A DNA stretch of 64,000 nt, taken from the NCBI GenBank assembly GCA_041650715.1, contig JBAZKQ010000001.1, forward strand, positions 723,913 to 787,912, read 5' to 3'. This document shows positions 1-48,957 of this stretch, one piece after another. The notes beneath the pieces were generated by a model. That model did not search any database and was not told the origin of the DNA. It saw only the letters and a program-made list of their open reading frames with translations. The first letter of the stretch is position 1; each line of letters begins with the position of its first letter. The stretch is from Patescibacteria group bacterium. GTDB taxonomy: Bacteria; Patescibacteriota; Patescibacteriia; Patescibacteriales; UBA12465. The position numbers and the translations under genes were made by a program.

Positions 1-446
1 CTCAAGCTTTCCCGAATTTTGGTGTCGAGCGCACAGGCGCTCCGATACAATCTTTCGCGCGCATTAGCCGCGAACCGATTATTACCCGCGAACAAATTTA
101 TGAACCCACAATCTTGATTATTCAGGACTCGACTCTGCTCGACACGGTTGATGTTTTCGCCGGTTGCTCGAAAGATACGCTCGTGATTATTAATGCCACG
201 GAAAATAAATGGCCAAAATTAACCGCTAAATTTAAAAAACTATATCTCGCCGGCGCCACCGAAATCGCCTTGGAAATTTTCGGAAAAAATATCGTTAATA
301 CGATTATTCTCGGCGCTCTGGCTAAACACAGCCAGCTCGTCAGTCTAAACTCTCTCCAAAAAGCCATCACCGAAAAATTTAAAGATAAAGGCGAAGCGCT
401 GATTGCCAAAAATATCAAAGCGATAAAAATGATTTATGAAGAATAA
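1..446 (+). CDS. porG: 2-oxoacid (pyruvate):ferredoxin oxidoreductase gamma subunit, 5' end cut by window edge
   Basis: The frame of ORF 114..446 stays open back to nt 3 (QAFPNFGVERTGAPIQSFARISREPIITREQIYEP...), which is PorG-like. It overlaps the downstream porD start by 11 nt. Confidence 0.8.
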   Translation, partial: QAFPNFGVERTGAPIQSFARISREPIITREQIYEPTILIIQDSTLLDTVDVFAGCSKDTLVIINATENKWPKLTAKFKKLYLAGATEIALEIFGKNIVNTIILGALAKHSQLVSLNSLQKAITEKFKDKGEALIAKNIKAIKMIYEE

Positions 447-711
447 AAAAATTAGTTTAATTACTGATCCCAATACAACTTTAAAGAATAAAACCGGGCC
501 TTGGCGCACCCAAAAACCGGTGACTGATTATAATACCTGCATTAGCTGCGGCTTATGCTCTAAAATCTGCCCAGACGCTTGCATCGAAATGAAAGCACAA
601 GCCGGTTTTAATAAAGAGAAGCCGGTCACGAATTATGATTATTGCAAAGGCTGCGCTTTGTGCGTGCATGAATGTCCGGTAAAAGCGATTAAAATGGTAG
701 CCGACTATTAA
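436..711 (+). CDS. porD: PFOR delta subunit, 2x[4Fe-4S] ferredoxin
   Basis: 91 aa with two CxxCxxCxxxCP motifs (CISCGLCSKICP, CKGCALCVHECP). Sits between porG and porA. Confidence 0.85.
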   Translation: MKNKKISLITDPNTTLKNKTGPWRTQKPVTDYNTCISCGLCSKICPDACIEMKAQAGFNKEKPVTNYDYCKGCALCVHECPVKAIKMVADY

Positions 712-712
712 T

Positions 713-1861
713 ATGGAAAATAAAAAACAAATCATGGAGGGTTCGCAGGCAATTGCGGCGGTTATTAATAATATTAACCCAGCCGTTATTTCTGCTTACC
801 CGATAACACCCCAAACTCATATCGTCGAAAAGCTCGCGAAGCTCAAAGCAAACGGCGAAGCCAACTATGAATATGTGCGCGCGGAAAGCGAGTTCGCGGC
901 CGCTTCGATTATCCTCGGGGCGAGCGCGACCGGTGTCCGCGTTTATAGCGCGACCAGCTCCCAGGGCTTACTCTTAATGGCCGAAGTCATTTTTAATATC
1001 GCGGGCATGCGCCTCCCGATCGTGATGACTTGCGCTAATCGTGCCCTATCCGGACCGATTAATATTTGGAACGATCAGAGCGATGTAATGTCTATCCGCG
1101 ACGCGGGCTGGATTCAATTATTTGCCAGCGATAACCAGGAAGCGGTTGACCTGCATATTTTGGCTTATAAGCTGGCCGAAAAATTAAATTTACCGGTCAT
1201 GGTCAACGTTGACGGTTTTATTTTAACGCATGCTTATGAACCGGTAGCAATTCCCGACCGTAAAACCATTAAGAAATATCTACCCGACTATAAAGCGGCG
1301 CGCGGCACTTATTTAGACCCTAATAATCCGGTAACGCTCGGCGCCTTTTTTACGCCGGCGCATTATTTCGAAACGAGAGAAGATTTGCATAATGACGGTT
1401 TAGCTGCCATAGGCACTATTAAAAAAGAATACCAAAGTTTAGTAAAAATTATCGGCCGCAAAAATAAAGATAATGGCTTAGTCGAATACTACGGACCAAA
1501 AAAGCCGGAAACGATTTTAGTTGCGCTCGGTTCGGTCGTCGGCACCTTGCGGGAAAGCGTTAAGGACAATAATAAGGTCGGGGTCTTAAAAATAAAAACT
1601 TTCCGCCCTTTCCCGGCCGCCGAAATTAATAAAATAATTTTACGCGCGAAAAATGTCGCGGTGATTGAAAAAGCCATTAGCCTCGGCCAAGCCGGCCCGC
1701 TATTTTCCGATCTTAAAGCCGCTCTCCCGAATAATAAATTAAATCTCAGTAATTATATCGTCGGGCTCGGCGGACGCGATGTCACACAAAAAATGATTAA
1801 GAGCATTATTGTGAGTGCGAAGAAAATAAATAAACAAACTAAATTTATCGGCAAAATATGA
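713..1861 (+). CDS. porA: PFOR alpha subunit
   Basis: 382 aa. The N-terminus (EGSQAIAAVINNINPAVISAYPITPQTHIVE) is typical of PorA. Starts 2 nt after the porD stop. Confidence 0.85.
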   Translation: MENKKQIMEGSQAIAAVINNINPAVISAYPITPQTHIVEKLAKLKANGEANYEYVRAESEFAAASIILGASATGVRVYSATSSQGLLLMAEVIFNIAGMRLPIVMTCANRALSGPINIWNDQSDVMSIRDAGWIQLFASDNQEAVDLHILAYKLAEKLNLPVMVNVDGFILTHAYEPVAIPDRKTIKKYLPDYKAARGTYLDPNNPVTLGAFFTPAHYFETREDLHNDGLAAIGTIKKEYQSLVKIIGRKNKDNGLVEYYGPKKPETILVALGSVVGTLRESVKDNNKVGVLKIKTFRPFPAAEINKIILRAKNVAVIEKAISLGQAGPLFSDLKAALPNNKLNLSNYIVGLGGRDVTQKMIKSIIVSAKKINKQTKFIGKI

Positions 1862-2691
1862 TTAAGTCTAAATTTAATTTTGCTAAACTTTCACTCGGCG
1901 TAATTTTCGGCCTGCAATTGGCCGCTGCCACTTTAATTTTTTCTTCCCCTCTTCCCGCAAGCGCGCAAACAAAGATTCAATCCTTAAACTTTGTGCCTCA
2001 AGTGAGCATTCCTAATTCCGAATTTAACGGCAGCGTTTCGGTGGGTAGTTACAACGATAAAACGGGAACAATCAGCAGCGATTTATTGGCTCGCTATATC
2101 AAAGCCTTTTATAATTACGGCTTAGCGGCAGCCGGAATATTGGCGGCCCTTATTTTAATGGGCGGCGGCGTACTCTGGTTAACTTCCGGCGGCGATGCCG
2201 GCAAAGTCGGCCAAGCGAAAGAATTAATTACCGGCAGTATCGTTGGTGTCGTCATTCTTGTCTGCGCTTGGGTGATACTAAATACGATCAATCCGAACCT
2301 CGTAAACTTACAACCGATTGAAACGACAGTTGTAAAAAAAATCGCTTATTGTTGCGACTCTAAACTTGGTAATGTCATGATGGATAAGGATGGAAATTGT
2401 CCGAGCGGGAAAGCTTGTGAAAACGGATTAACTTGTTTAAAAATGGACTCGACCAGCTATAGCTGCGCCGAAAATAGAATTTGTTGCCAATGCGGCGTCC
2501 ATTGCGTCGGCGGAATATGCCCGGATATTCTTTGTAAAAATGACACCACCGTCCAAGAATGTGATAATTGGTGCGAAAATGAAAAATATCTCGGAACCGG
2601 TTGGGCCTCGGCTTATTACGCCGGTGGAAGCAAATCCTATGAATGCAAAGCTATTCTCGGACTGATTGGAGTGGGCTGCGTAAAACAATAA
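1858..2691 (+). CDS. secreted T4SS-pilin-like (TrbC/VirB2-like) membrane protein with Cys-rich C-terminal domain
   Basis: Signal peptide (..PLPASA|QT). Two-TM hairpin core (AAGILAALILMGGGVLWLTSGGDAGKVGQAKELITGSIVGVVILVCAWVILNTINPNLVNL) is shared with ORFs 3591 and 4969. 16 Cys in the last ~110 aa. ATGA start/stop overlap with porA. Confidence 0.7.
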   Translation: MIKSKFNFAKLSLGVIFGLQLAAATLIFSSPLPASAQTKIQSLNFVPQVSIPNSEFNGSVSVGSYNDKTGTISSDLLARYIKAFYNYGLAAAGILAALILMGGGVLWLTSGGDAGKVGQAKELITGSIVGVVILVCAWVILNTINPNLVNLQPIETTVVKKIAYCCDSKLGNVMMDKDGNCPSGKACENGLTCLKMDSTSYSCAENRICCQCGVHCVGGICPDILCKNDTTVQECDNWCENEKYLGTGWASAYYAGGSKSYECKAILGLIGVGCVKQ

Positions 2692-2693
2692 AT

Positions 2694-3569
2694 ATGAAAA
2701 ATAATACAAAACAAAAATTTCTCTCTCCCGGTCATAATGCCTGCGCTGGCTGCGGCCAATTAAGCGCGGCTCAAGCCGTGATGCGGGGTTTAAATAAAAA
2801 TGTCATAATTGCCAATGCGACTGGTTGTTTAGAGGTAACCACAACTGCTTATCCGCAAAGCGCCTGGGGTCTTCCCTGGATTCATTCTTTATTTGAAAAC
2901 GCGGCGGCCGTTGCGTCCGGTATTCAAGCGGCTCTGAATAAAAAAGGAGATAAGACAACTAAAGTTATCGTTCAAGCGGGCGACGGCGGAACTTATGATA
3001 TCGGCCTGGGACTCATCAGTGGCATGTGGGAACGCGGCGAAAATATTTTATATATCTGCTACGATACTGAGGCTTATTCTAACACCGGTATCCAGGCCTC
3101 TGGCGCGACGCCCTATGGCGCCGACACAACGACTTCTCCTGCCGGTAGTGCTTCTATCGGCTCCAACCAGCGGAAAAAGGATATGCTGGCCCTGGCTCTT
3201 GCTCACGGCCTTAAATACGCCGCGCAAAGCACGGCCGGTTTCCCCGATGATATTACAAATAAAGTAAAAAAAGCGCTCAGTATTCCGGGCCCAAGCTATA
3301 TCCAAATTCTATCGCCCTGTATGCCCGGCTGGCGCATAAATAATGACGAAGCGGTGATGATGGGCAAACTGGCAGCTGCTACCGGACTTTTCCCTTTACT
3401 CGAGTACACTGACGGCCTTTTAAGCGCTTCGAGCGTGAACGCAAATTTCATAGCCAAGCCGGTCGCTGAATACTTATTAAAACAAGGACGCTTCAAACAT
3501 CTAAAAGAAGAAGATATTGCCGCTATCCAAAAATTAGCGGATGCCAATATAAAGAAATACAAAATTTAA
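2694..3569 (+). CDS. porB: PFOR beta subunit (TPP-binding)
   Basis: Contains GHNACAGCG and the QAGDGGTYDIG TPP motif. I prefer ATG 2694, 3 nt after the upstream stop. The track start at 2643 would overlap ORF 1858..2691 by 49 nt. Confidence 0.85.
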   Translation: MKNNTKQKFLSPGHNACAGCGQLSAAQAVMRGLNKNVIIANATGCLEVTTTAYPQSAWGLPWIHSLFENAAAVASGIQAALNKKGDKTTKVIVQAGDGGTYDIGLGLISGMWERGENILYICYDTEAYSNTGIQASGATPYGADTTTSPAGSASIGSNQRKKDMLALALAHGLKYAAQSTAGFPDDITNKVKKALSIPGPSYIQILSPCMPGWRINNDEAVMMGKLAAATGLFPLLEYTDGLLSASSVNANFIAKPVAEYLLKQGRFKHLKEEDIAAIQKLADANIKKYKI

Positions 3570-3590
3570 AAGAAGAAGCCTAAATTTATT

Positions 3591-4961
3591 ATGAAAAAAA
3601 TAAAACATTTTTATATACTGTCTATTTTATTTTTTGTTTTATTTCCATTTTTTTTAGTTTCTGCTGATATCGCTCCAATGGGAAAGGTTAATAGTGCTGC
3701 TGATTTCAATGCTTGGGGCGGAGGCAAGTGCGTCTACTATTCGGGCGGGGGCTGCAGCTCGGGCCAATGGTTAAATAGTGACAAGAGTAATTGCGCCTGG
3801 GAGCCCTGTTGCAAACAACACTTGGATGGCTATCCCGCCAACGACTTTATTTATCGATTTGCGACTCTTAATACTCCTTGTGTTAGTAAGACCGGTTTAA
3901 CTGAGACCATAGAACCTGACCAAACAAAATGTGTTAATCCAAACTTTGACTGCTGCTGTCCGGGTGCTCCAATTATTGCGCAGCAAAGTACCGTAGAAGA
4001 AAAAAAAGCCATCTATACTCCTCCCGATTTGCAGGTGAAGATACCAGGTATGGAAAAACTGTCGACTATCAGTTGTGACGAAACCGGACAATGCGAAATT
4101 CCTTGGCTCGGGCAATATGTAATCGGTATTTATAATTACGCCCTGAGCATCGTCGGTATTTTAGCGGCCATTATGCTCATGGCCGGCGGCCTACTTTGGT
4201 TAATTTCGGCCGGAGATGCTTCAAAAATAACTCAAGCGAAAGAGCTTATCACCGGCAGCGTTACCGGCCTAATTATTTTGGCCGCCTCTTTTATAATTCT
4301 TGTCCAAATTAATCCTAACTTGGTAAATTTTAATGCCCTTAGTTTATCTTCAATCAAGCGAGTAGATCTCGGTGATGCCGCTTGGACCCCAATAGTTTCC
4401 ACTAAACAATCGGTTGCGGCCTATTGCGGCTGTGTTGATTGGCATACCTTATATGCAGGTTCTAATCTAAAATCAGCCTCGGCGATAAAAGCGAAATTAG
4501 CAGGTTCACCCTTAGAAAGTTATAGCGATTTAGTTGCTTCTGCTTGTCAGCAAACCCAAATTGATCCGGCTTTAGTTTTAATTATTTGGCGCGTTGATAG
4601 TATCTACGCAACCGCCGGTCCAGGAAAAAAGAACAACAATCCCGGTAACGTCCGCTGCGGTGAGAAAAAAAGTGGCAATGGCTGGACCTGCGTCGACAAC
4701 TTCAGGCATTATGATAATCTCGCAATCGGCATTACGGATTGGTTTGTCGTTGTTGGCCAAGGCAAGCGCCTGAGCTCAAGTAAGAATATTCGTGAATTAA
4801 TTAAAACCTATGCCCCACCCAGCGATCATAATGATACTCAAGCCTATATTAATTTGGTTATGAGCGCGATAGACTCCGCTCACGGCGGCCAATTAAAAAC
4901 GACCGACGGCAGTGCCGCTTCTTTGCAGAAATGTACCGATATAAATAGTACTTGCCCATAA
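3591..4961 (+). CDS. secreted pilin-like membrane protein: Cys-rich N-domain, two-TM pilin core, lysozyme/SLT-like C-domain (tentative)
   Basis: Signal peptide (FFLVSA|DI). Core IPWLGQYVIGIYNYALSIVGILAAIMLMAGGLLWLISAGDASKITQAKELITGSVTGLIILAASFIILVQINPNLVNF. The C-domain has QIDPALVLIIWRVDS...NNNPGNVRC, which resembles the lytic transglycosylase/muramidase helix plus NNxxN motif, with D in place of the usual catalytic E. Confidence 0.65.
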   Translation: MKKIKHFYILSILFFVLFPFFLVSADIAPMGKVNSAADFNAWGGGKCVYYSGGGCSSGQWLNSDKSNCAWEPCCKQHLDGYPANDFIYRFATLNTPCVSKTGLTETIEPDQTKCVNPNFDCCCPGAPIIAQQSTVEEKKAIYTPPDLQVKIPGMEKLSTISCDETGQCEIPWLGQYVIGIYNYALSIVGILAAIMLMAGGLLWLISAGDASKITQAKELITGSVTGLIILAASFIILVQINPNLVNFNALSLSSIKRVDLGDAAWTPIVSTKQSVAAYCGCVDWHTLYAGSNLKSASAIKAKLAGSPLESYSDLVASACQQTQIDPALVLIIWRVDSIYATAGPGKKNNNPGNVRCGEKKSGNGWTCVDNFRHYDNLAIGITDWFVVVGQGKRLSSSKNIRELIKTYAPPSDHNDTQAYINLVMSAIDSAHGGQLKTTDGSAASLQKCTDINSTCP

Positions 4962-4968
4962 GACTATT

Positions 4969-5997
4969 ATGAAAAAACTAATTTTTATCATCAGTTTCAT
5001 AACTATATTTTTTATTTTTTCCGCTCCCGCTTGGGCGGCGTGCTCTTGGGAAACGGAAATTACCACTACGACCTATACCGCTCTCGGCTCAGCCCCGGTT
5101 ACGTCTGTTTCGGGAGGCTGCATCGCTAAAAGCATGCTTAAGGATAGTGATACTAAATGTTCCGGGACTAAGCCGACTTTTAGCATCAACTCCGGAAAAT
5201 CGGCCGTTTGTTGCTGTGATGGCGATCTTGGAAGCACGGATAAAATGCCGTTATTTAATATTCCTGATTTACAAGTAAAAATTCCGGGTATGCAAAATTT
5301 TAGCCAAACCACTTGTATCCCCGGAGCCAGTGGCGGTTATTTTTGCCAAATACCATGGATTGGACAATATATAATCGGTATTTATAATTATGCCATTAGC
5401 ATTGTCGGTATTTTAGCGGCGATTATGCTTATGGCCGGCGGCTTACTTTGGTTGCTTTCGTCGGGAGATGCTTCAAAAATTAGCCAAGCCAAAGAATTAA
5501 TTATCGGCAGTGTAACCGGCCTAATTATCTTGGCGGCCTCCTACATAATTCTCGGTCAAATTAATCCCAATCTCGTAAATTTTTCGCCAACCGCGATTAA
5601 TACGGTGGCCGATGTCGAACCGCTTTCCAGCGACGGCAATATAAATAACAGCACCGAATGCAATAATTGCGTTTCGCTGCAAAGCGCGATACCTTATAAA
5701 AATGGCCACCTCATAAATAGTGATTTGAATGCTAAATTGGCAACCGCTTGGGCAAACTCGGGTAGCCTGAAGTGGAGGGTAACCGAGGCTTATCCGCCCT
5801 CAAGCATGCACAACAGCCTTTGCCATAATAACGGCATGTGCGTCGATATCGCTTTGACGACCGATAAGAGTTGCACTAATGTAAATAAATTAATCTCAAT
5901 TTTAAAAAACGCCGGCGTATCAGTTTTAAATGAATACACCGGCTGCGGCGGGACCCAGACGACTTATGCCACGGGCGGGCATTTACATGTCAGATAA
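4969..5997 (+). CDS. secreted pilin-like membrane protein with LAS/peptidase-M15-like zinc hydrolase C-domain
   Basis: Signal peptide (SAPAWA|A). The pilin core is a close match to ORF 3591 at both protein and DNA level. The C-domain has H-x6-D (CHNNGMCVD) and a terminal HxH (GGHLHV), the LAS metallopeptidase signature. Confidence 0.65.
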   Translation: MKKLIFIISFITIFFIFSAPAWAACSWETEITTTTYTALGSAPVTSVSGGCIAKSMLKDSDTKCSGTKPTFSINSGKSAVCCCDGDLGSTDKMPLFNIPDLQVKIPGMQNFSQTTCIPGASGGYFCQIPWIGQYIIGIYNYAISIVGILAAIMLMAGGLLWLLSSGDASKISQAKELIIGSVTGLIILAASYIILGQINPNLVNFSPTAINTVADVEPLSSDGNINNSTECNNCVSLQSAIPYKNGHLINSDLNAKLATAWANSGSLKWRVTEAYPPSSMHNSLCHNNGMCVDIALTTDKSCTNVNKLISILKNAGVSVLNEYTGCGGTQTTYATGGHLHVR

Positions 5998-6402
5998 CTA
6001 TCTCCCCCGATCCATTGCTTCGTTAGCCAGGCGATCGGCTTCCCCATTCCGCTCCCGCGGAATATGAGTATAAGAAATTTTCTTAAAATTTAAACTTAAA
6101 TTGTGAATAGTCAAAAACAAAGGCGCCAAGTCTTTGTTTTTTACTTTATATTCATGTTTTAATTGTTTGACGACAAGTTCACTATCTAAATAGCAATCAA
6201 GCTCATTAGCCTTTAAAGAGGCGGCTTTCTGAAGGGCGGCGATAAGCGCTTTATACTCAGCTTGATTATTCGTGGCCACGCCAAGATACTCGGAAATTTC
6301 TGCCACGAGTTTTTTGTTTTCGTCATAAATTACTGCGCCGATGCCAGCCGGTCCGGGATTACCCCGCGCTCCGCCGTCGGTAAAAATAATCGCTTTATTC
6401 AT
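5998..6402 (-). CDS. rnhA: ribonuclease HI
   Basis: 134 aa: FTDGGARGNPGPAGIGAVI...NNQAEYKALIAAL...SELVVKQL...NGEADRLAN (DEDD RNase H motifs). Confidence 0.85.
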   Translation of the reverse strand: MNKAIIFTDGGARGNPGPAGIGAVIYDENKKLVAEISEYLGVATNNQAEYKALIAALQKAASLKANELDCYLDSELVVKQLKHEYKVKNKDLAPLFLTIHNLSLNFKKISYTHIPRERNGEADRLANEAMDRGR

Positions 6403-8224
6403 ATTTTTTTATATCAATCATTTTTAATTGCGGTTCACGCCGACCGTTAAAATCGTTCACTTCCAAATAATAAACCAAATCAACCCGATCGCCCACTTTA
6501 AATTCTTTATAACTGGCTGCTCCACCAAAAGCCAAGGCCCAGAAAGAGGACGCCGGGTGTGAAGCCGCCTGCGGATTAAACTGCGAGAAACGAATTTTAA
6601 TATGTTGATTATCGAAACCCATCGTTGTCACGTCATCCACGCGCAAATCATAGCTCACGAAACGGGGCTGCTGATTATTTTGGCCATAAGGTGCGAGCTT
6701 ACTGATACTATCAGCCAAATCAAGATTAATCGAAGAGAAATCCAGTTCCGCTTCGATTTTCAGTTTCGGTACCAGTTTACTTTTATCAACTGTTGTTTCG
6801 GCTAATTGCTGGATTTCCGTAACGAATTTATTTAATTTTTCTTCTGACTTTATAGAAAACCCGCAGGCCATCGGATGGCCGCCGAACTTATCAAGATTAG
6901 CGGAGCACGCTTCAATCGCGTGGATTAGGTTTAATTCTTCAACGGAACGTCCGGAACCTTTAAAGGCGACTTTCTTTGGCACGAGCTTCTTCGCAACGGG
7001 ATCAAACTCCGCCGCCTCAATTAAACGGGTAATGATTAAAGTTGGTCGATAATATTTTTCCGTAATTTTTCCGGCCACGAGTCCGATTACGCCTTCATTC
7101 CAAACCTCGTCTTCACCGGCGATACCGACAATTAAATTAGGCAGATTATTCTTATCAATCTGCTTTTCAACCGCTGCAATTATTTCCTCGGTGATTTGCT
7201 GGCGACTAATATTGCGTTGATTTAACTCGGCTGCCAGCCCTTGTGCCTCGCTCTCGTCAGTCGTCGTGAGCAGGGCGAAGGCGCTATTAGCATGGCTCAG
7301 ACGGCTTGCCGCGTTTAGGCGCGGCCCGATTTGCCAGCCAATATTCCAAGCCTCAAGCGGTCGCCCGCTATTTATTTTTGAAACTTTAATTAATTCGTTT
7401 AAGCCTAAGCGCTTACTGGTATTTAGAATTTTTAAACCGCTTTTAACGAGCAAGCGATTTTCTCCGAGTAAGCTGACCATATCGGCTACGGTTCCGACTG
7501 CCACTAAGTCCAAACTTTTATCGAGAATTAATTGTTTTTGCTTATCCGGCAAACTGGCTTTAGTTAAAAGAGCGCTAATTAATTTGAAAGCGACGCCAAC
7601 GCCGGCTAAATACGGCCAAGGATAATTATCGCTTTTATCCGCCGGATCGATATACAAACAATCAGGCGCGTCTTTCGGATCTTCCGGCAAGACGTGGTGA
7701 TCAGTCACAATAATTTCCAAGCCCTTACTTTTGGCGTAAGCAATTTCTTCATGATTGCGAATCCCGTTATCAACGGTTATGAGCAATTTAAAACCTTGGG
7801 CGACAATTTGATTAATCGCAACTTTATTCAAGCCGTAGCCCTCACTGACTCGATCCGGCAAATAGACTTCGGCGTTTGCGTGTAAAATCTTTAAAGTCTC
7901 CAGAAGGATAACGGAAGAGGTAACGCCGTCAGCGTCATAATCGCCGTACACAACTATCGGGCTGCCTTTTTTTATGTGGCTGATAATCAAATCGACTATC
8001 TGGGCCATGTGCTTAAATAAAAATGGATCGTAGAAAGCGTGTTCCGCGTTTTCCCCGATTACTAAAACTTTATCCGGCGAGAGTTCGCTATCTAAAAAAG
8101 CTTTAATATCAACTTTATTTTTCAAATCGCGATTATAAAGCAATTGCAAAAGCACCGGATTAATCTCCGGGTACTGAGCAAAAAATTCACTCGTGGCGGC
8201 AGGTGCGATTAGCCATTCCTTCAT
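6395..8224 (-). CDS. recJ: single-stranded-DNA-specific exonuclease RecJ
   Basis: 609 aa with DHH family motifs (VVYGDYDADGVTSS, ITVDNG, VTDHH) and DHHA1-like GGHPMACG. Confidence 0.9.
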   Translation of the reverse strand: MKEWLIAPAATSEFFAQYPEINPVLLQLLYNRDLKNKVDIKAFLDSELSPDKVLVIGENAEHAFYDPFLFKHMAQIVDLIISHIKKGSPIVVYGDYDADGVTSSVILLETLKILHANAEVYLPDRVSEGYGLNKVAINQIVAQGFKLLITVDNGIRNHEEIAYAKSKGLEIIVTDHHVLPEDPKDAPDCLYIDPADKSDNYPWPYLAGVGVAFKLISALLTKASLPDKQKQLILDKSLDLVAVGTVADMVSLLGENRLLVKSGLKILNTSKRLGLNELIKVSKINSGRPLEAWNIGWQIGPRLNAASRLSHANSAFALLTTTDESEAQGLAAELNQRNISRQQITEEIIAAVEKQIDKNNLPNLIVGIAGEDEVWNEGVIGLVAGKITEKYYRPTLIITRLIEAAEFDPVAKKLVPKKVAFKGSGRSVEELNLIHAIEACSANLDKFGGHPMACGFSIKSEEKLNKFVTEIQQLAETTVDKSKLVPKLKIEAELDFSSINLDLADSISKLAPYGQNNQQPRFVSYDLRVDDVTTMGFDNQHIKIRFSQFNPQAASHPASSFWALAFGGAASYKEFKVGDRVDLVYYLEVNDFNGRREPQLKMIDIKKYE

Positions 8225-14107: not shown

Positions 14108-16093
14108 TTAAATAATTATTCTGACGTCAGCGGCTAAACATTCTCCCGGCATTACAAATAAGGGGTTAATATCAAACTCCTTAATTTCCGGGTGTTCATT
14201 GGCGAGCCGCGCTAAATTTACCAGTGCCTTCACTAAGCCTTTTAGGTCATACTTCTTCTGACCGCGCGCCCCGTTTAAAATTGGAAATATTTTCAATTCC
14301 ATAATAGCCGCCAGCGCAGATTTAGAATCGAGATCACCGGTCGCGAGTTTAATTTCCTTAAATATTTCCGTATAAATTCCGCCGAGCCCGACCATCATAA
14401 TCGGACCAAAAGAGGCGTCGCGCTTAAAACCAAGGATGATTTCCTGAAAGTGATCCGCCTGCGTCTGAACGATAAAATAATTTTCCGGCTTCTCAAGCAC
14501 GCGTTTATTTTGCTGTTTCAATTCTTTCACTGCTGCCTTTAAGGCGCTTTCATTTTTTAAATTAGCGACCACCGCTTTTTTATCAGACTTATGCAAAAAA
14601 TCCGGACCAATTATTTTTAATACAACTGGGTATTTATAATTTGCCGCTCGCGCCTCTTCATATTTTACGGTTTTAACGGTCGGAATTTTATAATCGCGCA
14701 GTAATTTTAAAGATTGCAAATAATCCGTATTTGTTATGACCTTTCTAACTTTTACGCGAGGCGCTTTATAGGGCTTAATGGTCGCAATCGTATTCTTATA
14801 AGCGATTAATTTTTTAAAACTGCGTACGGCTTCCTCCGGGTAATTAAAACTTGGGATATTACTTTTTTCCAGCATATCCTGGGCTTTCGCCACGGCTTCC
14901 CCGCCCAAAAAACAGGCCATAATCAATTTATGCGGATATTTTTTAGCAGCCGCAATTATCGCGGCAGCCGTTTTTTCCGGTTCGGTGGAAGTTTGCGGGG
15001 TTAAGAGCACCAATAAATTATTGATTTTTTTATCGGCCAGCATTTCTTTCAAGCCCGCCGTGTAGCGCGCGGCATCGGCATCGCCGAGTAAATCCCAGCT
15101 CCTGCCGAAGGGTAATTTCTGCCGGCTAATTTCGTCGACCGTTAAAACGGCTACTCCGCCGGCATTAGTTAAAACATAAAGCTTCTGTTCTCCCGGATTA
15201 TGCCAGGCTTCTTTCCGGAATAATAATAAAAGATTGAATAATTCTTCCAGGTTCTCCAACCAAATTGCACCGGCGCGGCGTAGCCCGGTTTCAACGGCGG
15301 CGCTTGACCCGGCGAGCGATCCGGTATGGGATAGGGCTAATTGTCCACCAGCGGCGCTTTGGCCCGCTTTAAGAATCGCAACGGGCTTATGTTTAACCAG
15401 GCGAGAAACAAGGGCCATTAATTTTTCGCCATCTTTAATTTCTTCAAGATAGGCAACTACCAAATCGATTCTCTTCTCGGTCGCCAGATATTCAATAATT
15501 TGATTTTCTTCTAAAACCGCTTTGTTTCCCAAACTGATAAAATAACCAAAATTAAAATCTTTCACTTTTAACCAATCAAGGGCGGCCGAACCGATGGCGC
15601 CGGATTGCGATAAAAGAGCCGTATTACCGGTTGCTTTATCGGCGGCAGCGAAAGTTGCATTCAATTTATGCCAAGTATTAATCAGGCCCAGGCAATTCGG
15701 CCCCAGGATATGAAGATGATGGCGGGCAGCTAAAGCCACGATATCTGCCTCCTGTTTTTTACCTTCTTCCCCCGCTTCCTTAAACCCGGCGGTAATAATA
15801 ATAATATTTTTAATGCCGAGGTGCGCGCATTTCTTTATTTCTGCCAGTACAAATTGAGCCGGGATGGCGATAATTACCAAGAGCGCCTCATATTCGCGGC
15901 GAGGTAAATTCTCTAAATTCTCATAGGCGATTAGGCCGGCGATTTTCTTTTCCTTCAAATTTAGCGGATAAATTCTCCCCTGATAGCCGCCGCGGATAAT
16001 ATTATCTAAAACTTGGCGTCCAATTTTCGCCTTATCGCTTGAAGCGCCGATAACGGCTACTGACTTGGGGTTAAAAAAATACTTTAAAGACAT
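14108..16093 (-). CDS. ADP-forming acetyl-CoA synthetase (fused alpha/beta; CoA-binding plus ATP-grasp)
   Basis: 661 aa. FNPKSVAVIGASSDKAKIGRQV CoA-binding N-terminus, succinyl-CoA-synthetase-like middle, ATP-grasp C-terminal third. Confidence 0.8.
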   Translation of the reverse strand: MSLKYFFNPKSVAVIGASSDKAKIGRQVLDNIIRGGYQGRIYPLNLKEKKIAGLIAYENLENLPRREYEALLVIIAIPAQFVLAEIKKCAHLGIKNIIIITAGFKEAGEEGKKQEADIVALAARHHLHILGPNCLGLINTWHKLNATFAAADKATGNTALLSQSGAIGSAALDWLKVKDFNFGYFISLGNKAVLEENQIIEYLATEKRIDLVVAYLEEIKDGEKLMALVSRLVKHKPVAILKAGQSAAGGQLALSHTGSLAGSSAAVETGLRRAGAIWLENLEELFNLLLLFRKEAWHNPGEQKLYVLTNAGGVAVLTVDEISRQKLPFGRSWDLLGDADAARYTAGLKEMLADKKINNLLVLLTPQTSTEPEKTAAAIIAAAKKYPHKLIMACFLGGEAVAKAQDMLEKSNIPSFNYPEEAVRSFKKLIAYKNTIATIKPYKAPRVKVRKVITNTDYLQSLKLLRDYKIPTVKTVKYEEARAANYKYPVVLKIIGPDFLHKSDKKAVVANLKNESALKAAVKELKQQNKRVLEKPENYFIVQTQADHFQEIILGFKRDASFGPIMMVGLGGIYTEIFKEIKLATGDLDSKSALAAIMELKIFPILNGARGQKKYDLKGLVKALVNLARLANEHPEIKEFDINPLFVMPGECLAADVRIII

Positions 16094-16238: not shown

Positions 16239-16433
16239 TTATTGATAAATTTTAATATTTTTTTTTAATAAATTAATTAATCCGCTCATAAGACACAAAA
16301 CAATCAGGTAATTTATATTAAAATAGGCAAGAATAATGTTCGGCCAAACAAGTTCCAAGCCGATAAAAGCCAAGAGGAGGAAAAAGAGAAAATAAAAAAT
16401 TTCCCGACTGATTATTGCCAAATTTTTTGCCAT
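16239..16433 (-). CDS. small membrane protein (2 predicted TM helices)
   Basis: 64 aa and hydrophobic. Overlaps the end of ORF 16412..17932 by 22 nt on the same strand. Confidence 0.4.
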   Translation of the reverse strand: MAKNLAIISREIFYFLFFLLLAFIGLELVWPNIILAYFNINYLIVLCLMSGLINLLKKNIKIYQ

Positions 16434-17932
16434 AGGGTCCGGCCTTTTAATTCTATTTTAATTTGATAAATTTCTAAATTATCTTCAACTCCATCTTCCG
16501 TCTTTAGGCCCGGTACCGAAATCATAAAACTATATTTACCGTTTTCCCGATAAGTTCCCTTTAAATCGAATTCGGCCGTGGCGGTTTTAAAGCCCTCTTC
16601 TTCGCTCGGTTTATGATAATTCGCCACGATATATTTAACCGGATCGGAGACCGAAAAATACCGATCGACTTTAGGCAAAGCGGGATTAAAAAGGCTGTTG
16701 GCTGACCAGGCAAAAACGCCATTATTTTCCAAAATTAGGTTGTCTTTGCTTAATTTTATCGCCTTCTTTATTTCTCCGCCCTCAGCTTTAAAGTCATATT
16801 GCTGATAGGCCGTGCTGAGAGTAAAATTTTTCCCCCCGAAATTAATCGTCTGTAAGCTCGCCGGCGTAGGCGCCTTAACCTGTAAATAGGCTGAATCGGT
16901 ATAAAGAGTCAAAGCTCCCGGATTCGATACCGGCCAAATTTTGTTGATGAAAGACAGGCGATCAACCGAACTGACAATTTTCTTTATAACCATATCATCG
17001 GTTATTTTCACCTCAACTTTATAAACACCAGCCGGCAAGTTCCCCGGATCAAGAGTCAGCTCTTTTTCTTCGGTCTGCCCGCTACCCGGCTGCGGATTAG
17101 GGTCACTCAAATCCCGTGTCTCGATAATTTTATCACCGCGAGAAATAATTAAGCTAATTGGGGCCGGTTTCAGGTCTTGATTTAAATCGACAAAAGTAAA
17201 GGCCAGGCGCAGAGGTTCATTTTTAACGTAAACATAAAATTGATGCGCGCCGCGCAAAGGGATATTAAGCGTAAGCGGAACGGCCGCTTGATAGTTTTGG
17301 ATCTGATAATCATACTCCGGAGCGTAATTATAAACGGCCAGACAATTTTTTGAAACTTGGTCGCAGCCCTTAATATCGCCCTTGCTTAAATCCGCTTCGA
17401 GAACACTTAAACTCGTATAATTTTCTTCCTTTTGCAAAAATAATTTACCGTTCTCCTCACTCAGGTGCCAGCGCAGCATTAAATAGTCGAGAGCCTTATT
17501 ATCAAGCGGCTGCAAATTATAGCGCCAGACAATATTATCGGCTAAAACACCGGCCTCAACAACAGGAGTATCGAGCCCGAGATTATCACGATAAACAACG
17601 GTCAGTTTTGCCCGATCAAAAGTGCGCGACGTAAACACGGAAAAATAAATTGGGTCGCCAATGACGCGCGGCAATTCCCCTTTTTCAACCGCGACTCTTT
17701 CCGCCGGCGTAAACCCATAAATAAAGCCCTTGCCTGAGCGCCAAGGCGAACTATAATCGCGCGTATAAACAATCTGACCGAAGGGCACAATTTTCAAATA
17801 TAAAAAAGAAAAAATAATAATAAACAAAATAAGCCCCAAAAATAGGCGTAATTTAAATAAAAATGGCCATTTTTTCCAAATAGTTTTAAGCATATCTATC
17901 TCTATTTTACGCCATTTTGCACTCGCTGGCAA
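16412..17932 (-). CDS. hypothetical membrane-anchored protein
   Basis: 506 aa. One N-terminal TM helix (LFLGLILFIIIFSFLYL) followed by a large, probably extracytoplasmic, beta-rich domain. No motif recognised. The true start may be the internal MLKTIWKKW. Confidence 0.6.
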   Translation of the reverse strand: MPASAKWRKIEIDMLKTIWKKWPFLFKLRLFLGLILFIIIFSFLYLKIVPFGQIVYTRDYSSPWRSGKGFIYGFTPAERVAVEKGELPRVIGDPIYFSVFTSRTFDRAKLTVVYRDNLGLDTPVVEAGVLADNIVWRYNLQPLDNKALDYLMLRWHLSEENGKLFLQKEENYTSLSVLEADLSKGDIKGCDQVSKNCLAVYNYAPEYDYQIQNYQAAVPLTLNIPLRGAHQFYVYVKNEPLRLAFTFVDLNQDLKPAPISLIISRGDKIIETRDLSDPNPQPGSGQTEEKELTLDPGNLPAGVYKVEVKITDDMVIKKIVSSVDRLSFINKIWPVSNPGALTLYTDSAYLQVKAPTPASLQTINFGGKNFTLSTAYQQYDFKAEGGEIKKAIKLSKDNLILENNGVFAWSANSLFNPALPKVDRYFSVSDPVKYIVANYHKPSEEEGFKTATAEFDLKGTYRENGKYSFMISVPGLKTEDGVEDNLEIYQIKIELKGRTLWQKIWQ

Positions 17933-33726: not shown

Positions 33727-34575
33727 TTATGCCTGGGGTTTGTCGTAAGCCCCGGCAAAACCACGGCCAGCATCACCATAGGCCTGATAAAGACCGTTAG
33801 CAGCTGCCCAGCCGTTGGGATAAGTTGGCCGGCCTTCGGCCATTACGGCCTCACCGAGAAATTCGGCGACAACCGGTTTGGTACCGGACAGGTTCACCTT
33901 GTCCGGGAAACGTTTGTCTCCCTTTGCGAGATAAGGTGTGGCTGTCATGACTCCGGCCTCTACCAAAAATGGTATCGGACCCGAGTCGCGAACATCTGCT
34001 ACCTGGACACCGCCGAGCGTGACAGTTTTGGTCGGATTTTTCAGCTGCTGAACAGCGGCTTCGATTCCGGCCATAGCTTCGGCCTCCGAAGAAACGTTTT
34101 CACGTTTCATAATTTCGGGAAGACGCATGGCGAGAACTTCTTCAGCCGTAACACCAGGACACTGTCCCTGGTAGGCGGCGCCAAGACAGTGGTCTGCGGC
34201 AGCTATCACCCGGTCCTCCTGAGTTGGCTCAACTTCGAGATATTTCAGGAGTTGCCCCAATGAGGAAGCCTCGAGATACTGGCTTGGCGGTAAGCCGAAG
34301 CCAAAATTTCCTGGGTTATGATGGTCGCATTGCCCAACCATGACCAGCGAGCCGGCGGCTTTCGGAGAGCATTCAAAAATAATGCATTCCAAAGCCTCGG
34401 CGGCAGATTCGGTTGAATCCAGAACGAAGCCGTCGGCACGGTAGGCTGTCATTGGGTTGCACTTTTCGCCTGCAATTGTTGCCGTGGCTAAAAGTAAACC
34501 GTGCTGAGCGGCAATTTTGCGTGCTCTCTGCTCCTCGATGTCGGGAGCGCCGAAAATAATCACAATTTTATTCAT
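33727..34575 (-). CDS. DHH-motif protein (putative phosphoesterase), paralog 1
   Basis: 282 aa from MNKIVIIFGAPD. Contains QCDHHNPGN and AAADHC. It aligns by eye with ORF 34862..35632 (KIVIIFGAPD/KIFFIVPAND; CDHH/IDHH; SSLGQLLKYLEVE/SSIEQVAALLGVE; IAAADH/IAANDK). The track's upstream 17 codons fall inside the conserved leader hairpin, so I trimmed them. Confidence 0.6.
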   Translation of the reverse strand: MNKIVIIFGAPDIEEQRARKIAAQHGLLLATATIAGEKCNPMTAYRADGFVLDSTESAAEALECIIFECSPKAAGSLVMVGQCDHHNPGNFGFGLPPSQYLEASSLGQLLKYLEVEPTQEDRVIAAADHCLGAAYQGQCPGVTAEEVLAMRLPEIMKRENVSSEAEAMAGIEAAVQQLKNPTKTVTLGGVQVADVRDSGPIPFLVEAGVMTATPYLAKGDKRFPDKVNLSGTKPVVAEFLGEAVMAEGRPTYPNGWAAANGLYQAYGDAGRGFAGAYDKPQA

Positions 34576-34601
34576 TTTTTTCTTTTTTTCTCCGCGCACC
34601 A

Positions 34602-34656
34602 TTGCTCGGATTATTCTGTAACTCATAAATTATGAAATCCAAAATAATCCGGACAA
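34602..34656 (-). promoter_or_regulatory. conserved 5'-leader long hairpin, copy 1
   Basis: Arms 34602-34615 and 34643-34656 (minus strand UUGUCCGGAUUAUU / AAUAAUCCGAGCAA) enclose a 27-nt loop containing CAUAAUUUAUG. About 100 nt of leader is near-identical to 36580-36690. Confidence 0.6.
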
Positions 34657-34861: not shown

Positions 34862-35632
34862 TTATTTTTGCCAGAAAAATTCCAAAATCTTGACCTGGGT
34901 TTCTGGAGTGGGTTTTTCCACTCCCGAGAATCCATTCTTCGGATCACCACCGGCCCAGCGAGCGAATGTCGTTCCATCCTCAGTGAGAGCATAAAACTGC
35001 ATGTGCCGTGGACCGAAATAAATCCATTTTCCATTGAGGCCGTCAACGGTCAGAAGTTCAGCGTACTGACCAAAAATGCGGTCGGTAATTGCCGAAGTGG
35101 AGCCCTTTGGGCAACGGACAAACCATTTTTCGCCCCGGATTTCAGCCGACCGGATATCAGCTACTGCTTGGGCCTCTTGATCAGGAGTGACGCCCTGCGA
35201 CAAGCGGTCTTGGGCACGAACAATTTTAATTTCGTTTTCAGTTGCGCCCATCGCCCTTAATGCCGGAATGTATCCTTTATCATTGGCGGCGATAAGGAGT
35301 TGATGGTGAGTAAGTTCTACTCCCAAAAGAGCGGCCACCTGCTCGATTGAGGATTTTTCGTTGAAACGATTTTCATCACGGTAAATGTGATGATCAATAT
35401 TAATTGCGTTCCAACGAGCGAGCCCGCCCAGTTCAACCCCGTAAATCACGGCCGAAGGATTAGCGGATAAAACTCCCTCAACTTTTTCAACCACGGTTTG
35501 TTCTAACCTGGCCCAGGTTGCTCCCCAGGCTTGACGGGTAACTACGTGACTGATTTTAGCGGCCTGAAGAATTTTACGGATTTCTACCGCTTCGCCATCA
35601 TTAGCTGGCACTATGAAAAAAATTTTTTCCAT
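34862..35632 (-). CDS. DHH-motif protein (putative phosphoesterase), paralog 2
   Basis: 256 aa. Contains NIDHH and AANDKGY. Start is coupled to the upstream stop (UAAUG). Confidence 0.6.
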   Translation of the reverse strand: MEKIFFIVPANDGEAVEIRKILQAAKISHVVTRQAWGATWARLEQTVVEKVEGVLSANPSAVIYGVELGGLARWNAINIDHHIYRDENRFNEKSSIEQVAALLGVELTHHQLLIAANDKGYIPALRAMGATENEIKIVRAQDRLSQGVTPDQEAQAVADIRSAEIRGEKWFVRCPKGSTSAITDRIFGQYAELLTVDGLNGKWIYFGPRHMQFYALTEDGTTFARWAGGDPKNGFSGVEKPTPETQVKILEFFWQK

Positions 35633-37911: not shown

Positions 37912-38700
37912 ATGAACGAAAAAATCTTAATTAGTCTCGGTTTAAGCGGTGTACAAGCAGAGGTTTTTAGTTGCCTGCTCCAAAACGGACCGCAAAAAGC
38001 CAGTGATATCGCCAAATTAACCAAGCGCCCCCGCGGTGTCGCCTACAAAGGCTTAGAGGAATTGATTAGCTTGGGTCTGGCCAATAAAAAAGAAGCAAAG
38101 GCCGGTATAGCTGTCTTCGCGGCTGAGCACCCCTCGAATCTCGAGAAGGTCATAGAACAAAAAGAAAAAGACCTGGCTAAAACCAAGTCTGCTTTTGCGA
38201 GCTCCCTGCCCGATCTGATATCGACTTTCAATCTTGTCAGCAATAAGCCAGGAGTTAGATTTTATGAGGGGGAGGAAGGAATTAAAAAATCCCTGGAAGA
38301 TACCTTAAATTGCCAAGACATAATTTATACTTTTGCTGACATCGAGGCCGTTGAAAAAAACGTCAAAGAAATTAATGACGCTTACGCTAAAAAGAGGGAG
38401 AAGGCACAAATTAAAAAAAGAGTTATCGTCGCCGATACTCCTTTTAATCGCTCTTATTTAAAAAATTATAATGGCACTATTACCGAGTTTCGTTTTCTCC
38501 CCAAAGATTTTTACAGTTTTAACAGCGGCGTGCAAATTTATGAAAATAAAGTTTCTTATCAAGTAATTTCGGCGGAGAATAAGATGGCTATTATTATTGA
38601 AGACAAAAATATATACCAAATGAATAAGCTTTTATTTGAGTTTATCTGGGAAAAATTGGCAACTAAAATTAATGATTCTTCTCAAACGCCAAATACCTAA
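37912..38700 (+). CDS. TrmB-family HTH transcriptional regulator (paralog 1)
   Basis: 262 aa. N-terminal wHTH (LGLSGVQAEVFSCLLQNGPQKASDIAKLTKRPRGVAYKGLEELISLGL). The shared block PGVRFYEGEEGIKKSLEDTL matches ORF 52657..53430. Confidence 0.75.
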   Translation: MNEKILISLGLSGVQAEVFSCLLQNGPQKASDIAKLTKRPRGVAYKGLEELISLGLANKKEAKAGIAVFAAEHPSNLEKVIEQKEKDLAKTKSAFASSLPDLISTFNLVSNKPGVRFYEGEEGIKKSLEDTLNCQDIIYTFADIEAVEKNVKEINDAYAKKREKAQIKKRVIVADTPFNRSYLKNYNGTITEFRFLPKDFYSFNSGVQIYENKVSYQVISAENKMAIIIEDKNIYQMNKLLFEFIWEKLATKINDSSQTPNT

Positions 38701-48039: not shown

Positions 48040-48957
48040 ATGAATTACAATAAATTGCCTAGTCTTGACGAAAGTGTTATCGCCGCCCTCGACTTCTTTG
48101 TAAAAAATAATCCGCCCCATTTAAATCTTAAACCCTATTCCCTGCCTATCGTTGTCGGGAGCGGCAATGCCTATAATACCGCCCAAATTATTTTTGCCGG
48201 GCGTCCGGCGATTATCGCCAATGAAAGTAACTTCAAGACAATCTTAACCGGTTACAGGAAATTAATTAGTAGTAAGACTATCAGCCAGGCAATTATTATT
48301 TCTGCTTCCGGCGAAAAAGATTCGATTTGGGAAATTAAATTAGCCAAGAAAAGTAAATTAAAAACCGTTCTCATTACTTGTAATTCGGACTCGAGCGCAG
48401 CCAAATTAGCGGATCAAGTCGTCGCCTATAAAAAGCTCCCCGAACCTTATACTTATAATGTCTCTACGTATTTGGGTATGATTTTATCGGCCGGCCAAGA
48501 AGAGTCTCGCGGAATCAAAGAATTTATCAGTAAAATTAAGTTACCGGCTAATTTCAAAAAATATAATGCCTTCTCCTTTATTCTGCCTGACGAATTTGGC
48601 GCTATTTCTCCCATGCTTGAGATTAAACGCAATGAATTATTCGGTCCCTATATTTCCCTACGCGCTTTTAGCTTCGGCGAGGCGCGCCATGCTAAATTCG
48701 TGAATAATTCAGACAAGGAACTGGTGATTAGTTTCGGCGACAATAAATATTTCGGCCTAAAAGGAAATCGCTGGGAAATTAAAATACCACGTAACGCCGG
48801 CAATAGCTTTATTATGGCTTTAAGCTATTATCTAATCGGTAAAATCCAAGAGTCGAAAACACCCTATTTTAAGAAAAACATCGCTGATTTCTGTAAAGAA
48901 GGACCTTTAGCCTATGGCAGTAAGCGGCCGTTTGATATTATTGTCCCAGGAAATTAG
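48040..48957 (+). CDS. hypothetical protein (weak SIS/sugar-phosphate-binding-like pattern)
   Basis: 305 aa. VVGSGNAYNTAQ...IIISASGEK...LITCNSDS resembles SIS-domain segments. Low certainty. Confidence 0.5.
   Translation: MNYNKLPSLDESVIAALDFFVKNNPPHLNLKPYSLPIVVGSGNAYNTAQIIFAGRPAIIANESNFKTILTGYRKLISSKTISQAIIISASGEKDSIWEIKLAKKSKLKTVLITCNSDSSAAKLADQVVAYKKLPEPYTYNVSTYLGMILSAGQEESRGIKEFISKIKLPANFKKYNAFSFILPDEFGAISPMLEIKRNELFGPYISLRAFSFGEARHAKFVNNSDKELVISFGDNKYFGLKGNRWEIKIPRNAGNSFIMALSYYLIGKIQESKTPYFKKNIADFCKEGPLAYGSKRPFDIIVPGN

Follow-up and report, generated by a model that had tools for sequence, protein, structure and literature searches.

A porGDAB locus interleaved with genes for VirB2-like anchored surface proteins in a Falkowbacteria-type lineage of Patescibacteria

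In the known operons for pyruvate:ferredoxin oxidoreductase (PFOR) of anaerobic bacteria and archaea (porGDAB/porCDAB), the genes for the two catalytic subunits, porA and porB, normally adjoin each other. Here, we consider a locus at the start of a 64,000-nucleotide (nt) stretch of DNA from a Patescibacteria group bacterium (assembly GCA_041650715.1, contig JBAZKQ010000001.1, positions 723,913 to 787,912 of the forward strand; the window, below, means this whole stretch). The locus has the four subunits, their order and their domain content in common with the known operons, but in its lineage a membrane-protein gene always lies between porA and porB, and a dsbA gene stands at the head of the operon. 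Three genes of the window locus, pil1, pil2 and pil3, encode pilin-like proteins. DsbA/BdbD-type oxidoreductases are encoded together with the disulfide-containing pilus or secretion proteins that they serve in several systems, including BdbDC and ComGC of Bacillus subtilis and TrbB of the F plasmid. As in these cases, a membrane-anchored thioredoxin-fold CxxC protein is encoded here with Cys-containing exported pilin-like proteins but, unlike in these cases, no DsbB/VKOR partner was seen at or near the dsbA locus.

Arrays of VirB2/TrbC-like pilins of Pfam family PF18895 are described for Patescibacteria in two reports, in which they are located near virB4 or other genes of type IV secretion systems (T4SS) (PMC12102498; PMC10633639); a cultivated relative is reported to depend on VirB2-like pilins for its growth as an epibiont (PMC10633639). 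The proteins of these arrays share with pil1-3 the Pfam family, the signal peptide followed by a hairpin, and the phylum (PMC12102498; PMC10633639). The window genes differ from the arrays in that no T4SS gene lies within 64 kb and the interspersed non-pilin genes are those for PFOR subunits, and their products differ from the small pilins of the arrays in being proteins of 277-456 amino acids (aa) with large ectodomains. Neither linkage to por genes nor fusion to hydrolases is mentioned in the searched parts of the two reports (PMC12102498; PMC10633639).

Our working model, to which we assign a probability of roughly 0.6, is that the locus is a vertically inherited mixed operon in which a disulfide-rich surface module, made up of DsbA and VirB2-like anchored proteins, is combined with the PFOR genes in a Falkowbacteria-type lineage. 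One or two pilin-like genes separate porA from porB in all 36 genome loci and all 49 metagenome loci of this type with complete por genes.

Layout of the locus and its por and dsbA genes

The pilin-like proteins of the lineage fall into two classes, B-type proteins encoded between porA and porB and A-type proteins encoded after porB. With this nomenclature, the genes of the window locus and its 3' neighbour are as follows.

3 to 446, plus strand: porG (gamma subunit), 3' part, in frame from position 3 with the stop codon at 446; the gene starts upstream of the window
436 to 711, plus strand: porD (delta subunit, 2x[4Fe-4S] ferredoxin-like; Pfam Fer4 families, TIGR02179)
713 to 1861, plus strand: porA (alpha subunit; Pfam POR_N and PFOR_II)
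1858 to 2691, plus strand: pil1 (B-type VirB2-like anchored surface protein; PF18895)
2694 to 3569, plus strand: porB (beta subunit, binding thiamine pyrophosphate; Pfam TPP_enzyme_C)
3591 to 4961, plus strand: pil2 (A-type; Cys-rich N-ectodomain and phage-lysin-like C-terminal domain; PF18895 at 25.6 bits; clusters with the orthologues after porB)
4969 to 5997, plus strand: pil3 (A-type; Cys-containing N-ectodomain with C-x-W ... CCC and putative zinc-peptidase C-terminal domain; PF18895 at 25.1 bits)
5998 to 6402, minus strand: rnhA, convergent (open reading frame; Pfam RNase_H in locus L001)

The original prediction, made from the window sequence, had proposed that pilin-like genes are interleaved with the por genes in the order porG-porD-porA-[pil1]-porB-[pil2]-[pil3] with operon-tight junctions, and both the list of open reading frames (ORFs) and the raw sequence bear out this order, all on the same strand, and these junctions. 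Specifically, porG and porD overlap by 11 nt, the ATG of pil1 overlaps the TGA stop codon of porA as ATGA (-4 nt), and the spacing is 2 nt between pil1 and porB, 21 nt between porB and pil2, and 7 nt between pil2 and pil3. An alternative, longer porB ORF begins at 2643, and this start is not the conserved one. The stop codon of rnhA abuts that of pil3 without a spacer (5997/5998), and this convergent gene therefore marks the 3' boundary of the operon. We note that rnhA overlaps recJ by 8 nt (6395-6402) and that the sole plus-strand terminator-like hairpin 3' of pil3 (6113-6141) sits within rnhA.

Misassembly had been named as an outcome that would undo the prediction. The same protein and the same order were found in two independent assemblies, the exact pil1 protein being present in the porA-pil1-porB context in a 758-kb ENA contig and in a Logan assembly of another run. 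There are no repeats and no transposase at the operon junctions in the window sequence, and in GC content, overall and at third codon positions (GC3), the pilin-like genes resemble both the por genes and the remainder of the window.

The por genes encode a four-subunit 2-oxoacid:ferredoxin oxidoreductase that is ordinary and intact and that most likely acts on pyruvate. All four subunits are present with POR, 2x[4Fe-4S], POR_N/PFOR_II and TPP_enzyme_C domains, respectively, and the proteins fall in the NCBIfam pyruvate/2-ketoisovalerate family of 2-oxoacid:ferredoxin oxidoreductases. PorG, which in its complete form in locus L001 has 194 aa, matches Pfam POR (E 1.6e-17) and, above the cut-off, TIGR02175 PorC_KorC (191.9 bits); PorD likewise scores above the cut-off of TIGR02179 PorD_KorD (93.1 bits). 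PorA matches POR_N (E 4.8e-72) and PFOR_II (E 1.8e-23), with PorA_Arch as its best NCBIfam match (E 5e-134; 447 bits against an equivalog cut-off of 550), and PorB, which is 61-87% identical within the clade, matches TPP_enzyme_C (E 6e-20), with NCBIfam PorB as its best match (E 1.5e-105; 352.8 bits against an equivalog cut-off of 405). With the scores of PorA and PorB under the equivalog cut-offs, the substrate may also be a 2-oxoacid other than pyruvate. An ADP-forming acetyl-CoA synthetase, the usual ATP-yielding partner of PFOR, is encoded at 14108-16093 on the minus strand (CoA_binding_2, Succ_CoA_lig and ATP-grasp_5 domains); it lies ~8 kb from the por genes on the opposite strand and, therefore, outside the operon.

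Just upstream of the window, at 7281-8030 of locus L001, lies a gene for a membrane-anchored DsbA-like protein that overlaps the start of porG in two independent assemblies. The protein matches Thioredoxin_4 (E 2e-25) and DSBA (E 4.3e-15); its active site is CPYC, and its N-terminus bears a hydrophobic anchor. dsbA is present in 34 of 36 related por loci of the genome set and in all loci without por. Because the Cys-rich domains of the pilin-like proteins are predicted to be extracellular and the operon encodes a DsbA, we expect structural disulfides in these domains. The operon DsbA would be the natural partner for oxidising the pilin-like ectodomains, a substrate link that is suggested by the co-location of the genes and by the Cys content of their products.

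Conservation, decay and duplication of the operon

To place the locus among its relatives, we searched with porA through a set in which each GTDB species is represented by one genome. This search yielded 80 loci, onto which we mapped all operon proteins. Thirty-six of these loci, all of the Patescibacteria/Falkowbacteria type and with porA 53-85% identical, have complete porA and porB genes with a pilin-like gene between them. By contrast, porA adjoins porB in the 29 loci from outside the candidate phyla radiation (CPR) (Azospirillum, Chloroflexota, Omnitrophota and others; porA 36-51% identical), and neither a pilin-like gene nor dsbA is present in any of these 29; 15 loci were incomplete. 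A metagenome scan with the B-type alignment gave 80 more loci, of which 49 have the order porA-pilin-porB, 23 are incomplete and eight lack por. The contiguity of PFOR subunit genes that the original prediction had regarded as normal is, therefore, what the 29 non-CPR loci have. The comparison of por loci also changes one element of the prediction: with porA and porB separated by a pilin-like gene in 36/36 complete Patescibacteria loci and in 0/29 non-CPR loci, what had been viewed as the insertion of a surface-protein gene at this locus appears instead as a clade-wide, vertically inherited arrangement. Literature searches on PF18895, on PFOR or pilins in Falkowbacteria, and on pilins with hydrolases in Patescibacteria returned no description of the arrangement or of hydrolase fusions.

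The junctions are also tight in the relatives, with median gaps of 10 nt from porA to the pilin-like gene, 9 nt from there to porB, and -4 nt from porB to the next pilin-like gene; overlaps of the ATGA type occur at 10 of 28 porA-to-B-type junctions and at 16 of 22 porB-to-A-type junctions. Downstream, rnhA, recJ and lepA are conserved, with rnhA as a neighbour in nearly all related loci. The arrangement varies in some genomes. Several genomes with por lack the A-type gene (for example, L012, L041 and L044). Extra small genes lie between porA and porB in L017, L018, L022, L023, L032 and L046, with an interval of ~4 kb in L046; the extra genes include toxin-antitoxin-like or DUF2283-type pairs and genes for four-helix-bundle ('23S rRNA intervening sequence'-like) proteins, a GIY-YIG nuclease-like ORF, and SLT and 3D-domain/lytic-transglycosylase proteins. 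Remnants of a porB pseudogene were also considered as the content of the larger gaps between porA and the pilin-like gene; none was found, and these gaps hold toxin-antitoxin-like, DUF-like, four-helix-bundle and GIY-YIG genes.

Eight loci without por (L095, L099, L116, L132, L133, L134, L135 and L138) have the order dsbA-B-type-A-type followed by rnhA and recJ; their flanking genes are the same, and their junctions are likewise tight. In one of these, L134, the last ~50 codons of porA lie directly 3' of dsbA (785-946) and a 3' stub of porB precedes rnhA (2046-2105). In a neighbour-joining tree of RecJ, a quick distance tree, the loci without por form a subclade nested deep among the loci with por. 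Because of the L134 remnants and this nesting, we conclude that the deletion of por was secondary and spared the surface-protein genes, which form the persistent backbone of the operon.

A further locus, L112, contains a tandem duplicate of a segment composed of the 3' third of porB and the A-type gene (1845-5048; 74.6% nucleotide identity over 1074 nt), so that two A-type genes are now separated by a fragment of porB. This duplication directly demonstrates how pilin copies multiply and drag porB sequence along, and duplication of a [porB-pilin] segment followed by loss of one porB would be a simple route to interleaving. The interleaving probably arose by segmental duplication of [porB-pilin] followed by deletion.

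Two classes of VirB2-like anchored proteins

The domains of the three pilin-like proteins that matter for the following are as follows.

1858 to 1965, plus strand: signal-peptide-like N-terminus of pil1 (aa 1-36, ending ASA/Q; hydrophobic aa 8-32; helix at aa 8-29 in the structural model)
2092 to 2289, plus strand: two-helix membrane hairpin of pil1, a VirB2-like core with the loop TSGGDAGKVGQAKE (Pfam match at aa 79-144; helices with confidence scores ~90; hydrophobicity)
2350 to 2688, plus strand: Cys-rich C-terminal ectodomain of pil1, with 16 Cys in aa 165-274 (Cys positions)
4614 to 4910, plus strand: lysin-like C-terminal domain of pil2 (NNNPGNVR ... APPSDHNDTQAY; PHROG and PDB profile matches)
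5704 to 5994, plus strand: C-terminal domain of pil3 with H-x6-D ... H-x-H, a LAS/Hedgehog-DD-peptidase-like motif (motif conservation)

pil1 (277 aa), pil2 (456 aa) and pil3 (342 aa) each have a signal-like hydrophobic N-terminus and two hydrophobic helices with a short GGD..K..AKE loop between them, and their ectodomains comprise 110-190 aa. pil1 scores 33.6 bits against PF18895 (T4SS_pilin), over the curated cut-off of 26.6, while pil2 (25.6 bits) and pil3 (25.1 bits) are ~1 bit under it; among the orthologues, 40 of 43 B-type and 23 of 29 A-type proteins match at E<=1e-3. We found 152 homologues for pil1 and 167 for pil3, and NCBI labels both proteins 'pilin'. In AlphaFold models with a mean predicted local distance difference test (pLDDT) score of 77.7 for pil1 and 80.8 for pil3, the hairpin helices have high pLDDT (aa 76-109 and 114-144 in pil1; aa 130-163 and 168-198 in pil3). 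Based on the A-x-A motif, pil1 would be cleaved after aa 36. The predicted topology comprises a signal peptide, an N-ectodomain outside, a VirB2/TrbC-like hairpin with ~13 cytoplasmic residues, and a C-domain outside.

Profile hidden Markov models, whether derived from the three cores or from 120 homologues, detect no pilin-like ORF besides these three in the 64 kb of the window. Chance adjacency through an abundant pilin family is ruled out because the window's three copies are all at the por locus. Two features of T4SS pilins, a small size with a mature protein made up essentially of the hairpin and linkage to T4SS genes, are lacking in pil1-3, and Pfam searches detected no genes of the VirB4, VirB6 or VirB3/PrgI families among the window's 46 large ORFs or in the 10 kb upstream. 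As judged from these features, the pilin-like proteins behave as membrane-anchored exported enzymes or binders and not as plain T4SS pilins. The description 'pilin-like secreted membrane protein' in the original prediction is thus apt for all three proteins as far as it goes, while pil2 and pil3, with their C-terminal domains, are better regarded as putative membrane-anchored wall hydrolases.

To compare the two classes, we extracted 72 pilin-like proteins from the por loci and analysed their best inter-genome hits and a neighbour-joining tree of their cores. In B-type proteins, a short N-terminus free of Cys precedes the hairpin, and the long C-terminal domain that follows contains 9-28 Cys; in A-type proteins, the N-ectodomain contains Cys (C-x-W ... 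CCC), and another C-terminal domain follows the hairpin. For 70 of the 72 proteins, the best inter-genome hit is a protein of the same class, and all 26 genes located after porB fall in one clade of the quick distance tree, to which only three others belong, all of them second genes of loci in which porB is displaced downstream. By these measures, pil1 is B-type, and pil2 and pil3 are an A-type tandem duplicate. Among database homologues, the five that we sampled, down to 36% identity, are all in matching operon positions, both sampled distant homologues of pil1 lie between porA and porB, and full-length orthologues of pil3 are present in L009, L011 and L016.

In the model of pil1, the C-terminal region begins with a small beta domain predicted with confidence (aa 154-205), after which a Cys-rich tail is modelled with low confidence; the Cys-rich domain of B-type proteins probably serves in binding. 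The C-termini of A-type proteins from different genomes match VanY, Peptidase_M15, M15_4, Peptidase_C39_2, SLT_3, 3D, NlpC/P60 and Amidase_2, with a phage lysin-like domain and a LAS-like domain as further types (L003-L075, P0121-P0240). Because the families differ between genomes while the anchor and the gene position are constant, the catalytic cassette appears to have been exchanged. These are the enzyme families (SLT, NlpC/P60, amidase, M15/VanY, 3D and tape-measure/endolysin) found in T4SS-associated hydrolases such as VirB1, PrgK and TraG of pIP501 and in the lytic domains of phage tails and endolysins; unlike in VirB1, PrgK and TraG, the hydrolase predicted here is fused to a VirB2-like hairpin, and its cassette is swapped between orthologues.

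In pil2, the C-terminus matches phrog_2276 (tape-measure lytic region; E 3.3e-7), phrog_873 (endolysin; E 1.9e-5) and, under the cut-off, Pfam Glucosaminidase (E 0.006). In the PDB, it matches phage Gp29 (9vvp_L; E 1.4e-3) and an endolysin (7q47; E 0.048), with NNNPGN[IV]R and APP..ND as common motifs. In the pil3 family, H281, H286, D293, H338 and H340 are invariant in 25 homologues. The pil3 C-terminus has no Pfam match and no relation to the VanY-type cassettes by hhalign; because its profile matches Hedgehog N-domains on the zinc motif, we suggest that it is a LAS-type peptidase. Taken together, the domain matches point to A-type proteins as membrane-anchored peptidoglycan hydrolases. A gene for another wall hydrolase, with LysM and Peptidase_M23 domains, lies at 50604-52001 (plus strand), unlinked to the por cluster.

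Expression, competing explanations and meaning

Co-transcription with translational coupling is plausible, given that the genes share one strand, that neighbouring genes are spaced by -4 to 21 nt and that promoter and terminator matches are at chance level. Specifically, the operon contains 13 promoter-like sites against 12.9 expected from shuffled sequences, and terminator-like matches are not above the shuffled expectation; the internal promoters and terminators for which the original prediction had proposed a check thus occur at the level of shuffled sequence. In our working model of a vertically inherited mixed operon, the unit dsbA-porG-porD-porA-[B-type]-porB-[A-type], with the A-type gene duplicated as pil2 and pil3, would be transcribed as one message from upstream of dsbA and translationally coupled at the overlaps, so that the surface proteins would be made constitutively alongside a central fermentation enzyme. 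DsbA would oxidise the Cys-rich ectodomains, the B-type protein would bind, and the A-type proteins would cut the wall from their VirB2-like anchor. The two parts would be linked through expression and history and not through joint biochemistry, with pilin copies multiplying by segmental duplication and the surface module outliving the deletion of por.

Several observations weigh against this model. A simple scan upstream of dsbA detected no plus-strand sigma-70-like promoter, and internal promoters may lie within coding sequence. In deep-branching relatives, 146-193 nt separate porA from the B-type gene. In L041 and L047 (4400-8100), dsbA-porG-porD is inverted relative to porA-pilin-porB, which requires a separate promoter for the split por unit in these two loci. 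None of the 85 loci with por lacks the B-type gene, which would also fit a functional tie. The neighbour-joining trees carry no support values. As to the proposed activities, the Cys-rich ectodomain of pil1 matches no Pfam or PHROG family and nothing in the PDB with E<1 by Foldseek. The profile of the pil3 C-terminus matches only Hedgehog N-domains in the PDB, with the zinc motif aligned at a weak E of ~0.055, and a Foldseek search of the full-length pil3 model against the PDB and BFVD gave only spurious helical-hairpin matches to histidine kinases and efflux adaptors, so that this route to its fold was rejected.

The alternative that survives best, though we consider it unlikely, is adaptive co-regulation as a 'host-exploitation regulon', in which production of the proteins for surface attack and attachment (the Cys-rich binder, the wall hydrolases and DsbA) would have to keep pace with that of the fermentation enzyme, whose substrates would be pyruvate or other 2-oxoacids from the host. 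It would account for 85 loci with this arrangement, whose overlaps would keep translation proportional, and for a B-type gene that is never lost from loci with por; the nearby ADP-forming acetyl-CoA synthetase gene and the requirement for VirB2-like pilins in epibiotic growth, as reported in PMC10633639, also fit. However, the relatives without por keep the surface module unchanged, several genomes have toxin-antitoxin-like, GIY-YIG or other genes between porA and porB, the A-type gene is missing from several genomes with por, and no regulator or regulatory element was identified.

We regard it as improbable that the pilin-like genes are transcribed independently, from promoters of their own inside the upstream coding sequence, with the gene order as frozen synteny. 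Promoter-like hexamers do occur in pil1 (2086-2115 and 2540-2568) and pil3 (5361-5388), but the number of such sites in the operon is that expected by chance. Similarly, the long gaps in deep-branching relatives and the inversion in L041 and L047, which indicates that porA-B-type-porB can stand alone, are to be set against junctions of -4 to 21 nt that leave no room for terminators and against ATGA overlaps that recur clade-wide at two junctions.

A joint reading in which the interleaving itself is functional also appears doubtful to us. In this reading, these bacteria would be ultrasmall and host-dependent, and a constitutive, translationally coupled operon would fix the ratio of a central ATP-yielding fermentation enzyme to an exported 'attack kit', whose components would be DsbA, a VirB2-like host binder rich in Cys, and wall hydrolases that are held by VirB2 anchors and carry exchangeable warheads; as three products of the operon are inserted into the membrane during translation, the por mRNA and with it newly made PFOR would be tethered to the membrane at the site of host contact; and the VirB2-hairpin::hydrolase fusions would supply, in an undescribed way, the 'missing VirB1' of Patescibacteria type IV systems.

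Far less likely still is direct coupling, in which the B-type protein would anchor or regulate PFOR at the membrane or would provide a redox route from PFOR or ferredoxin to the outside. The position of the B-type gene exactly between those for the two catalytic subunits in every locus with por, its ATGA overlap with porA, and a Cys-rich domain without an assigned function would be expected from such a coupling. Yet, only the ~13 residues around TSGGDAGKVGQAKE are predicted to be cytoplasmic, with the same loop in A-type proteins and in PF18895 generally; the predicted location of the Cys-rich domain is outside the cell, and the operon DsbA points to structural disulfides; and as much as ~4 kb of unrelated genes can separate porA from porB. 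Because so little faces the cytoplasm, the loop is generic for the family and the B-type genes persist after por deletion, a direct functional link between PFOR and the pilin-like proteins is unlikely. Finally, an artefact, whether misassembly, spurious ORFs or a recent horizontal or mobile insertion, has only the unusual order in its favour and can be dismissed on the basis of the two assemblies, the more than 85 related loci with this order, the old positional orthologues, the Pfam matches and conserved residues, the native GC/GC3, and the junctions free of repeats and transposases. In sum, the locus represents a conserved, evolutionarily informative gene order with interesting surface proteins and, probably, without a new mechanism.

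Elsewhere in the window, a tRNA cluster (Ile(GAT), Met(CAT), Phe and Pro(TGG)) contains a tRNA-Phe(GAA) gene (61778-62092, plus strand) with its anticodon loop interrupted by a 240-nt group I intron (61801-62040; Rfam RF00028, 93.3 bits); ARAGORN found this tRNA only with introns allowed. Five ORFs have no Pfam match at E<=1e-4/1e-5: 38669-41182 (837 aa), 16412-17932 (506 aa), 33727-34626 (299 aa) and 34862-35632 (256 aa) on the minus strand, and 48040-48957 (305 aa) on the plus strand.

The building blocks of the locus, that is, a PFOR operon, VirB2-like pilins of Patescibacteria, DsbA and wall hydrolases, are all of known kinds, and the literature that we searched contains no description of catalytic-subunit genes split by a membrane-protein gene, with start/stop overlaps, across a candidate phylum-level lineage. 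The order dsbA-porGDA-pil-porB-pil/rnhA-recJ-lepA provides a synteny marker for this lineage. The L112 duplication and the L134 deletion of por with its 3' stubs make the operon a clean natural experiment in which mixed operons of reduced genomes can be followed as they form and decay. With regard to host-interaction factors and the 'missing VirB1' function, both single-locus orthogroups of CPR surface proteins are good candidates. A functional linkage, if there is one, would connect energy metabolism with the epibiotic surface machinery.

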